Source of the DNA: an uncultured Alphaproteobacteria bacterium
GTDB taxonomy: Bacteria > Pseudomonadota > Alphaproteobacteria > RF32 > CAG-239
Assembly (NCBI GenBank): GCA_934271715.1
Contig: CAKQRZ010000004.1
Span: 11,651-75,650 of the forward strand
Length of the DNA: 64,000 nucleotides
Direction of reading: 5' to 3'
Shown here: positions 59,771 through 61,161 of the stretch, one piece after another
Numbering within the stretch: position 1 is the stretch's first letter
Layout of the letters: every line of letters starts with the position of its first letter
Translations under genes and position numbers: made by a program
The notes under the pieces: model-generated
The model's database searches: none
Seen by the model: only the letters and a program-made list of their open reading frames with translations
Told to the model about the DNA's origin: nothing

Positions 59771-60472
59771 ATGTTTAAGGGTATAGAATTTTTCAGAAGA
59801 AAGAGCTGTGGAACGGAGTTTGGATTGTTTCCCTCAGCTCGCAATGACGTTTGTTCTGCTGGGCGGTCAATGATAGAAATGCTCGGCGTGCTGGCGATTA
59901 TCGCGGTGCTGAGTGTCGGCGGTATCGCCGGATATTCCAAAGCTATGGAGCAGTTTAAGGTTGACAAAGCCGTGAGCGAATACAGCTACTTAATTCAAGG
60001 GCTGTTAGAACACTTAAAAGATTTGCAAAATGTTTCAAAACCCAATGAGGGCGACATTCAATACGGATTAACCAGCGTTGTGGAAGCCGAAAGTTTGGTG
60101 CCGGAAACATGGGAAAAAATATCTAACCACAATTATAATGACCCATACGGGAACTTAATCAGAATTTTCTCCCGTAGCCAAACTTTGGTTATAGATATGT
60201 ATTTGGGCGGTTTCCAATCTGTTGACGGAGGCTCTGCTTCAACTGCATTTTCGCCTAAGTTTTGCAGCGCTTTGATGCAGGATGTGGTTCAACCATTATC
60301 TTCTGTTTTGTACAGCGCTTGGTTTACCTATGGTAATTATTATTATGGCGATAAACATTGTGGCTCAGGTTCAAAATGTATTAGAGATTTGAAACTAAGC
60401 GATATAAATAGGGCATGCAATTACTGCGCTAAACAGTCTGGACGTTTCTGCGGACTAATATTGGAATTTTAA
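59771..60472 (+). CDS. type IV pilin / pseudopilin-like protein with long leader (paralogue 4)
   Basis: MFKGIEFFRRKSCGTEFGLFPSARNDVCSAG|RSMIEMLGVLAIIAVLSVGGIAGYSKAMEQFK. The first 24 nt of the CDS are identical to paralogue 1. Confidence 0.7.
   Translation: MFKGIEFFRRKSCGTEFGLFPSARNDVCSAGRSMIEMLGVLAIIAVLSVGGIAGYSKAMEQFKVDKAVSEYSYLIQGLLEHLKDLQNVSKPNEGDIQYGLTSVVEAESLVPETWEKISNHNYNDPYGNLIRIFSRSQTLVIDMYLGGFQSVDGGSASTAFSPKFCSALMQDVVQPLSSVLYSAWFTYGNYYYGDKHCGSGSKCIRDLKLSDINRACNYCAKQSGRFCGLILEF
59876..60261. repeat. 386-bp perfect inverted repeat, arm A (inside pilin paralogue 4)
   Basis: Verified base by base against the reverse complement of 60743-61128. Confidence 0.9.
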
Positions 60473-60482
60473 TATTATGTCC

Positions 60483-60529
60483 ATAAAAGAACAGTCTTGG
60501 TTTTGGATAAAAACTAAGACTGTTTTTCG
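60483..60529. terminator. bidirectional terminator between convergent pilin genes
   Basis: Stem aacagtctt/aagactgtt with flanking A and T runs. Confidence 0.5.
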
Positions 60530-60531
60530 GT

Positions 60532-61161
60532 TTAAAATACTAAAATAAGTCCGCAGAGTTTGTTTGCTTCTTTGGTGCAGTAATTACATACATTGTTAAT
60601 TTCTCTTAAGCTTATATTTCTGATGCAGTGTGTACTTTCGCTGCAATAAGCGTCTCCCATATATTCATTTCCATTTGTAAAGAAAGCTTTATTTAAAACA
60701 GATGCTAAAGGCTGCACCACATTTTGCATAAGCGATGAACAGAACTTAGGCGAAAATGCAGTTGAAGCAGAGCCTCCGTCAACAGATTGGAAACCGCCCA
60801 AATACATATCTATAACCAAAGTTTGGCTACGGGAGAAAATTCTGATTAAGTTCCCGTATGGGTCATTATAATTGTGGTTAGATATTTTTTCCCATGTTTC
60901 CGGCACCAAACTTTCGGCTTCCACAACGCTGGTTAATCCGTATTGAATGTCGCCCTCATTGGGTTTTGAAACATTTTGCAAATCTTTTAAGTGTTCTAAC
61001 AGCCCTTGAATTAAGTAGCTGTATTCGCTCACGGCTTTGTCAACCTTAAACTGCTCCATAGCTTTGGAATATCCGGCGATACCGCCGACACTCAGCACCG
61101 CGATAATCGCCAGCACGCCGAGCATTTCAATCATAGAACGCCCTATTTGATTATTTTTCAT
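60532..61161 (-). CDS. type IV pilin / pseudopilin-like protein (paralogue 5, short leader)
   Basis: MKNNQIG|RSMIEMLGVLAIIAVLSVGGIAGYSKAMEQFK. Identical to paralogue 4 over 128 codons, then diverges at the C-terminus. Confidence 0.75.
   Translation of the reverse strand: MKNNQIGRSMIEMLGVLAIIAVLSVGGIAGYSKAMEQFKVDKAVSEYSYLIQGLLEHLKDLQNVSKPNEGDIQYGLTSVVEAESLVPETWEKISNHNYNDPYGNLIRIFSRSQTLVIDMYLGGFQSVDGGSASTAFSPKFCSSLMQNVVQPLASVLNKAFFTNGNEYMGDAYCSESTHCIRNISLREINNVCNYCTKEANKLCGLILVF
60743..61128. repeat. 386-bp perfect inverted repeat, arm B (inside pilin paralogue 5)
   Basis: Exact reverse complement of 59876-60261. Confidence 0.9.

Follow-up and report, generated by a model that had tools for sequence, protein, structure and literature searches.

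The perfect inverted repeat shared by two neighbouring, convergent pilin-like genes of this genome is very probably, judging by comparison with related strains, the product of non-reciprocal gene conversion from gene 5 into gene 4. With a probability of roughly 0.85, a single recent ectopic event transferred 386 nt or more from gene 5 to its neighbour; that the event is recent we infer from the 0 mismatches in 386 nt. This is an ordinary kind of recombination, seen unusually cleanly, and no dedicated DNA-flipping switch. Coordinates refer to the window, that is, the whole stretch of 64,000 nt that was analysed, in which the locus consists of the following parts.

59374–59460, plus strand: tRNA-Leu(taa), which marks the left side of the variable locus (ARAGORN; Rfam tRNA, 54.5 bits).
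59577–59757, plus strand: upstream cassette of gene 4, 181 bp, with a perfect 24-nt inverted repeat (59577–59600 and 59734–59757).
59771–60472, plus strand: gene 4, the recipient, type IVb-pilin-like, 233 aa with a 30-aa leader, its centre copied from gene 5.
59876–60261, plus strand: left arm of the repeat, the converted tract in gene 4, 386 nt.
60262–60742, no strand: inter-arm segment, 481 nt, with two diverged Cys-rich C-terminal modules and the spacer.
60487–60527, no strand: spacer hairpin with an 18-bp stem, a putative bidirectional terminator (from folding).
60532–61161, minus strand: gene 5, the donor, type IVb-pilin-like, 209 aa with the 7-aa leader MKNNQIG, of site-5 type throughout.
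60743–61128, minus strand: right arm of the repeat, lying in gene 5, with the donor's version of the 386-nt tract.
61196–61216, minus strand: hairpin resembling a terminator, 35 nt ahead of the start codon of gene 5.

Direct comparison within the window of positions 59876–60261 with the reverse complement of positions 60743–61128 gave 386 identical positions out of 386 and thus reconfirmed the base-perfect inverted repeat reported by an earlier sequence-only reading. Both arms lie inside two type IVb-pilin-like ORFs (genes 4 and 5) that stand tail to tail, and around the arms runs a looser, imperfect inverted repeat of 573 nt (59861–60433 and 60571–61143, 88% identity). Assuming 70% identity, which is typical for this gene pair in other strains, the probability of 386 consecutive matches is about 1e-60; the observed identity is far beyond chance. 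Every other paralogue pair of the window shares at most 37 nt of exact sequence.

The 3′ edge of the tract is sharp. Beyond it, genes 4 and 5 agree at 130 of 208 nt (62.5%) and 39 of 69 aa (57%), close to the value of ~65% over 70 codons given previously, and the C-terminal modules must be old because their divergence past the tract has reached a dS of 2.3 (dN 0.36). The 5′ edge is slightly softer: in the preceding 15 nt (the G-R-S-M-I codons), 12 of 15 positions match and all three differences are synonymous, and the description of the identity as ending abruptly on both sides therefore holds for the 3′ edge but only partly for the 5′ edge. On the 5′ side of the G(−1) codon, genes 4 and 5 have unrelated sequences. 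The ATG of gene 4 at position 59771 is preceded by GGAGGA and opens the 30-aa leader MFKGIEFF...CSAG, compared with MKNNQIG in gene 5; the two differing leaders were found as described earlier. The 18-bp hairpin of the 59-nt spacer folds on both strands (−21.7 kcal/mol, z −5.3, on the plus strand; −14.3 kcal/mol, z −4.0, on the minus strand) and is flanked by T runs on each side, which makes the shared bidirectional terminator proposed before a plausible assignment. A scan with Rfam returned two tRNAs only and no riboswitch in the leaders.

Exact matches to both window proteins were absent from the contig index and present in the protein collection (P0142 for gene 4), and near relatives were used for the comparison of loci. 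Two look-ups, each giving 22–24 contigs with near-identical places collapsed, supplied most of the loci and led to about 50 syntenic contigs; all sequences compared are metagenome assemblies. All alleles were aligned, and 209–210 informative columns were scored against the unconverted gene pair of L004. The order AsmA, ATP12, acylphosphatase, DUF2769, pssA, psd, tRNA-Leu, gene 4, gene 5, Fic (in some strains) and autotransporter is found on many metagenome contigs. Where present, the Fic-domain gene (202 aa) stands between gene 5 and the autotransporter gene (L001, 7690–8298; L009, 2094–2702), and at the same place the window has just ~300 nt of intergenic DNA (61162–61463).

At the loci L003, L004, L005, L009, L011–L014, L016, L018, L099 and L104–L106, which have the same synteny, the two genes are 68–70% identical and their longest exact run is 23–72 nt. 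A scan of JGI metagenomes yielded one syntenic locus, which is unconverted. The tract in gene 4 of the window shows 0 differences to its own gene 5, 12–61 to site-5 alleles from other strains, and 133–135 to the site-4 alleles found there, i.e., to the orthologues of gene 4. Along gene 4 the informative sites form a single clean recipient-donor-recipient block, with the site-4 type at the first few sites, the site-5 type over the whole tract and the site-4 type again up to the stop codon; both the head and the C-terminal module are of the ancestral site-4 type. The switch points fall within alignment columns 14–23, in the helix coding region, and within ATTTTCGCCTAAGTTT, the FSPKF island, and both islands are among the few places where the unconverted paralogues match.

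Gene 5 of the window is of the site-5 type throughout, and the ancestral centre of gene 4 is lost, with nothing returned. Since gene 5 is donor-type over its whole length, the exchange is non-reciprocal, and since the old centre of gene 4 is gone while gene 5 received nothing, the pattern is that of gene conversion. The sequence-only reading had named a gene-conversion tract as its alternative, and it is this alternative that the comparison bears out: a non-reciprocal transfer with the gene's own neighbour as donor, and independent events in relatives.

The proposed course of events would begin with two anciently diverged convergent paralogues between the tRNA-Leu and the autotransporter gene. 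RecA-type homologous recombination, and not replication template switching, would have copied the part that begins at the alpha-1 helix and reaches the conserved FSPKFC motif, and would have replaced the ancestral centre of gene 4, which would have kept its own promoter cassette, long leader and Cys-rich C-terminal module. The switch points would lie in the sole short near-identical stretches, namely the N-terminal helix coding region and the FSPKF island, and the perfect 386-bp inverted repeat would be a by-product. From general knowledge of homologous recombination it follows that a crossover between such arms inverts what lies between them; in a recombination-proficient cell, an occasional crossover would thus invert the 481-nt segment, and each of the two expression sites would receive the C-terminal module of the other.

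It should be noted that the window is also an inter-lineage mosaic. Over positions 57655–63000, the psd/pssA/tRNA side is 96% identical to L003/L004 and 84% identical to L001/L009, and the gene-5 head and the autotransporter gene are 96–98% identical to L001/L009 and 93% identical to L003. The opposite lineage affinities of the two flanks therefore place a between-strain break point in or beside the pilin pair.

A second long repeat is found in another lineage and another study. The 140-kb contig L001, which has 84% identity in psd/pssA, carries a perfect repeat of 359 nt with shifted end points. Outside its tract, gene 4 of L001 has 0 differences to gene 4 of L009 and its relatives, and inside the tract at least 335 nt equal L001's own gene 5. 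By these comparisons, L001 shows an independent second conversion, and L009 and L001 form a near-isogenic pair from before and after the event. Copying in the reverse direction is seen in L006 and L007, where ~80-nt patches of the site-4 type lie inside site-5 genes; these mosaic alleles sit on contigs of ~1.5 kb. Both large tracts, that of the window and that of L001, were copied from site 5 into site 4 and span the same domain, which could be due to selection or to a mechanistic bias.

Long tracts number 2 in about 50 contigs, and no exact match exceeds 68 nt among 21 adjacent family pairs from other species, of which 5 are convergent. Because the long repeat is missing from ~50 syntenic contigs and its two origins differ in their end points, it is sporadic rather than conserved, and the long identity is probably recent and no built-in design of the family. 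The independent events with other end points in related strains give strong support to the earlier claim of ongoing recombination.

Genes 4 and 5 belong to a family with three further paralogues in the window (11458–12075, 15156–15788 and 38038–38661). A class III signal was found, with Gly at −1, Glu at +5 and a hydrophobic alpha-1 helix; G/RSMIEMLGVLAIIAVLSVGGIAGY occurs in 5/5 window paralogues and is nearly invariant among 56 homologues. The predicted model has the pilin fold, in which an N-terminal helix (residues 12–56) packs on an antiparallel sheet. Pfam gave no match for the pilin-like proteins, and the NCBIfam matches were all far under the cut-off (e.g., TIGR02532, 10.9 bits versus 16.3). 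Neither a prepilin peptidase nor pilus assembly machinery was found among the ~48 window ORFs scanned, and the window otherwise carries housekeeping genes. The family comprises 6707 matches, all from uncultured Alphaproteobacteria of human or animal guts, and species-representative genomes hold 558 family stretches, dozens per genome. Contigs very often end inside family genes or the upstream cassette, or within a few hundred bases of them (L014, L005, L008, L015, L017, L105, L106 and many of L019–L098), and in assembly the family acts like a dispersed repeat and causes breaks.

A 280-aa protein with a PilS N-terminal and a Bundlin domain (22646–23488, minus strand) is a recognisable type IVb pilin that adjoins secA, and its sequence is unrelated to the expanded family. 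Two large ORFs of 571 and 431 aa (16970–18685 and 18675–19970, minus strand) adjoin paralogue 2 and have no Pfam match. A tyrosine recombinase of FimB/FimE size (39362–39952, plus strand) lies 700 bp from paralogue 3 and is divergent to it; no convincing invertible-promoter repeat was found between the two. Since a full-length integrase (42346–43413, minus strand) adjoins a tRNA-Thr (43665–43740), the region of 39.3–43.7 kb may be an integrated island.

In several species, many family members have a cassette of ~181 bp with a perfect 22–24-nt inverted repeat immediately in front of the ribosome-binding site. The copy of gene 4 (59577–59757) contains a promoter-like site at 59645–59674 and ends 13 nt before the ATG; further copies in the window are at 12181–12360, upstream of paralogue 1, and at 43823–44000, as an orphan. 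The idea that the 24-nt repeat frames an invertible promoter found no support, the inner segment having the same orientation relative to the gene in ~30 of ~30 copies. In the divergent copy L042, wholly different arm sequences still pair, with about 8 compensatory changes. Possible identities of the cassette are a mobile promoter of the MITE type, a structured 5′ leader or a set of recombinase sites.

Comparison of the head regions of the window (59771–59860, 61144–61161, 12076–12165, 15789–16064 and 38662–38700) with those of L003–L008 showed that heads, i.e., promoter plus leader, are interchangeable modules and that allele homology breaks exactly at the Gly(−1) codon. The leader of site 5 has 7 aa in the window and in L001, and an unrelated one of ~30 aa without a nearby ATG stands there in L003–L007. 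The head of paralogue 2 (MSICVAVGNKVMDTRLPQPAGCGDKYD...) is also found on site-5-type bodies of other strains (P0003, P0139 and P0141). Long leaders resemble short leaders with in-frame hairpin insertions.

One contig bears on inversion by way of the repeat: L002, of 1534 bp, from the same study as L001. Its nucleotides 1–1336 are 100% identical to the gene-5 path of L001, and its nucleotides 978–1534 are 100% identical to the gene-4 path, including 17 nt past the stop codon, which together make the exact flipped junction. L002 is either a flipped isomer or a misjoin across the repeat.

One can also picture the conversion as a single visible step in a combinatorial system of the whole family, in which three islands (the coding region of the alpha-1 helix, FSPKFC, and the C-terminal CGLIL-F together with the terminator) would serve as joints for the reshuffling of heads, centres and Cys-rich C-termini within and between genomes. 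At the convergent pair, each long tract would then create a transient, reversible RecA-driven flip-flop that re-pairs C-termini with differently regulated heads, and L002 would be the flipped isomer. We consider this picture doubtful as a whole, and a biologically meaningful flip-flop at the locus is likewise unlikely.

In a working inversion switch, the repeat would be maintained so as to flip the 481-nt segment at a useful frequency, by homologous or site-specific recombination, and the flip would let the long-leader site, regulated by the cassette, and the short-leader site trade their surface-exposed C-terminal modules. For such a switch speak the 386-nt perfect inverted identity that brackets both variable C-termini and the shared terminator, the flipped junction of L002 in the sole other lineage with a long repeat, and the precedents of Campylobacter fetus sap and of pilin-gene inversion in Moraxella (references listed in PMC1950947 and PMC4073114). 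Long inverted identity in oppositely oriented homologues is indeed present (386 nt in the window, 359 nt in L001), but the repeat is missing from about 50 syntenic contigs and has two origins with different end points. Conserved inverted identity at the locus was found neither in these ~50 contigs nor in the 21 pairs of other species. Short conserved crossover sites common to all carriers were not found either, the repeat being 386 nt of paralogous coding identity that is absent in most strains. The contig L002, with its 1.5 kb, crosses a 359-nt repeat and ends 17 nt past the stop codon, and a low-coverage misjoin would look alike. The flipped proteins predicted for the window strain (both) and the reciprocal one for L001 are absent from 15 billion catalogued proteins.

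Within about 17 kb of the repeat there is no recombinase gene, the nearest being those at 39362–39952 (a 196-aa tyrosine recombinase, 20 kb away) and at 42346–43413; the neighbours of the repeat are tRNA-Leu, psd, pssA and the autotransporter gene, plus Fic in other strains. Overall, a maintained switch is quite improbable. The shufflon-like or pil-type switch suggested by the sequence-only reading finds no support as a system, given that the repeat is absent in ~50 syntenic contigs and 21 paralogue pairs and that no recombinase is nearby. Its more modest part, inversion by way of the arms, fares better: the repeat could now mediate a swap of the C-termini, and the L002 junction occurs in a sister lineage, but a short contig over a 359-bp repeat is no proof.

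Gene conversion, our preferred reading, has a RecA-independent counterpart in template switching between the arms of the large quasi-palindrome that the convergent genes form. Correction of quasi-palindromes by template switching is established in E. coli, the genes stand 59 nt apart tail to tail, and the switch points lie in islands of microhomology. Against this route, the tract lies away from the centre of symmetry, and the C-termini next to that centre are unchanged, which excludes simple fold-back priming and requires two separate switches; the known events of this kind also use much shorter repeats. From sequence alone, gene conversion and template switching between close inverted paralogues are indistinguishable, and we regard the latter as improbable.

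It is still less probable that the pattern is an assembly artefact in which the centre of gene 5 was wrongly threaded into gene 4. The contig does come from a metagenome-assembled genome, and family members, often at contig ends, do disturb assemblies, but a misjoin would need two jumps, each through at most 29 nt of shared identity at the two ends of the tract, which is unlikely; moreover, the pattern is one clean tract, and an analogous converted allele lies inside a 140-kb contig (L001) of another study. A recent inverted duplication of one pilin gene, with heads and C-termini diverging later, would account for adjacent genes with an identical core but is refuted by synteny and orthologues and has almost no probability left: both genes occupy the same positions in all related strains as paralogues of 68–70% identity, their heads and tails match the positional orthologues, and the C-terminal dS is 2.3.

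Segmental gene conversion of pilins is known from pilE/pilS-type systems (PMC4534519), the variation of which is classed as a contingency locus and not as phase variation (PMC11868660). As in Neisseria pilE/pilS, the copying between paralogues seen here is non-reciprocal, the tracts end in short conserved stretches, the alleles are mosaic and the donor is unchanged. In contrast to Neisseria, both partners at the locus are complete genes, each with a start codon and ribosome-binding site of its own, and not silent cassettes; they form an adjacent convergent pair instead of a distant archive; the fold is type IVb-like instead of type IVa, and the events are rare across strains instead of frequent. 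The locus also resembles cases of concerted evolution of adjacent surface-protein genes such as flaA/flaB of Campylobacter jejuni, in which recombination between neighbouring paralogues gives long identical tracts beside diverged parts (recombination at the flagellin locus is cited in PMC1950947). The fla genes are in tandem, where crossovers delete or duplicate, whereas the genes here are convergent, where crossovers invert.

In the sap system of C. fetus, inversion takes place by recombination in the conserved 5′ regions of oppositely oriented homologues (Tu et al. 2001; Dworkin & Blaser 1997, both as cited in PMC1950947). The present locus resembles it in the opposite orientation of homologues with a long identical 5′ coding region, in which a crossover would re-associate heads and tails. 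In C. fetus, every homologue has the conserved region as a fixed feature, and it is a single promoter that moves; at the present locus, the identity is sporadic, each gene retains its own head and an inversion is only a possibility. Moraxella bovis and M. lacunata have an inverting segment with ends inside the pilin coding sequence, and here too inversion would exchange the C-terminal parts of two pilin genes (PMC4073114). The Moraxella system uses a site-specific recombinase, Piv, encoded beside the segment, and one expression site; no such gene was found at this locus, where the repeat is plain paralogous identity. With the R64 shufflon (Rci) the locus shares alternative C-terminal segments of a type IVb pilus protein, but not the short repeated crossover sites, the dedicated tyrosine recombinase or the single constant N-terminal part, none of which were found here. 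By this comparison, inversion, if there is any, would be closer to C. fetus sap than to Moraxella Piv or the R64 shufflon.

Taken together, an uncultured alphaproteobacterium of the human gut (Hadza, Nepal and other cohorts) provides an unusually clean natural case of ectopic conversion, in which the partners are paralogous genes for surface proteins. The family concerned has several thousand type IVb-pilin-like proteins, goes unrecognised by Pfam and evolves through the exchange of modules at short conserved islands. Annotation and strain tracking should take into account that such genes become mosaics and cause breaks or misjoins in assemblies. Should the by-product repeat flip, it would be a reversible switch that arose de novo from one conversion event, without a dedicated recombinase.
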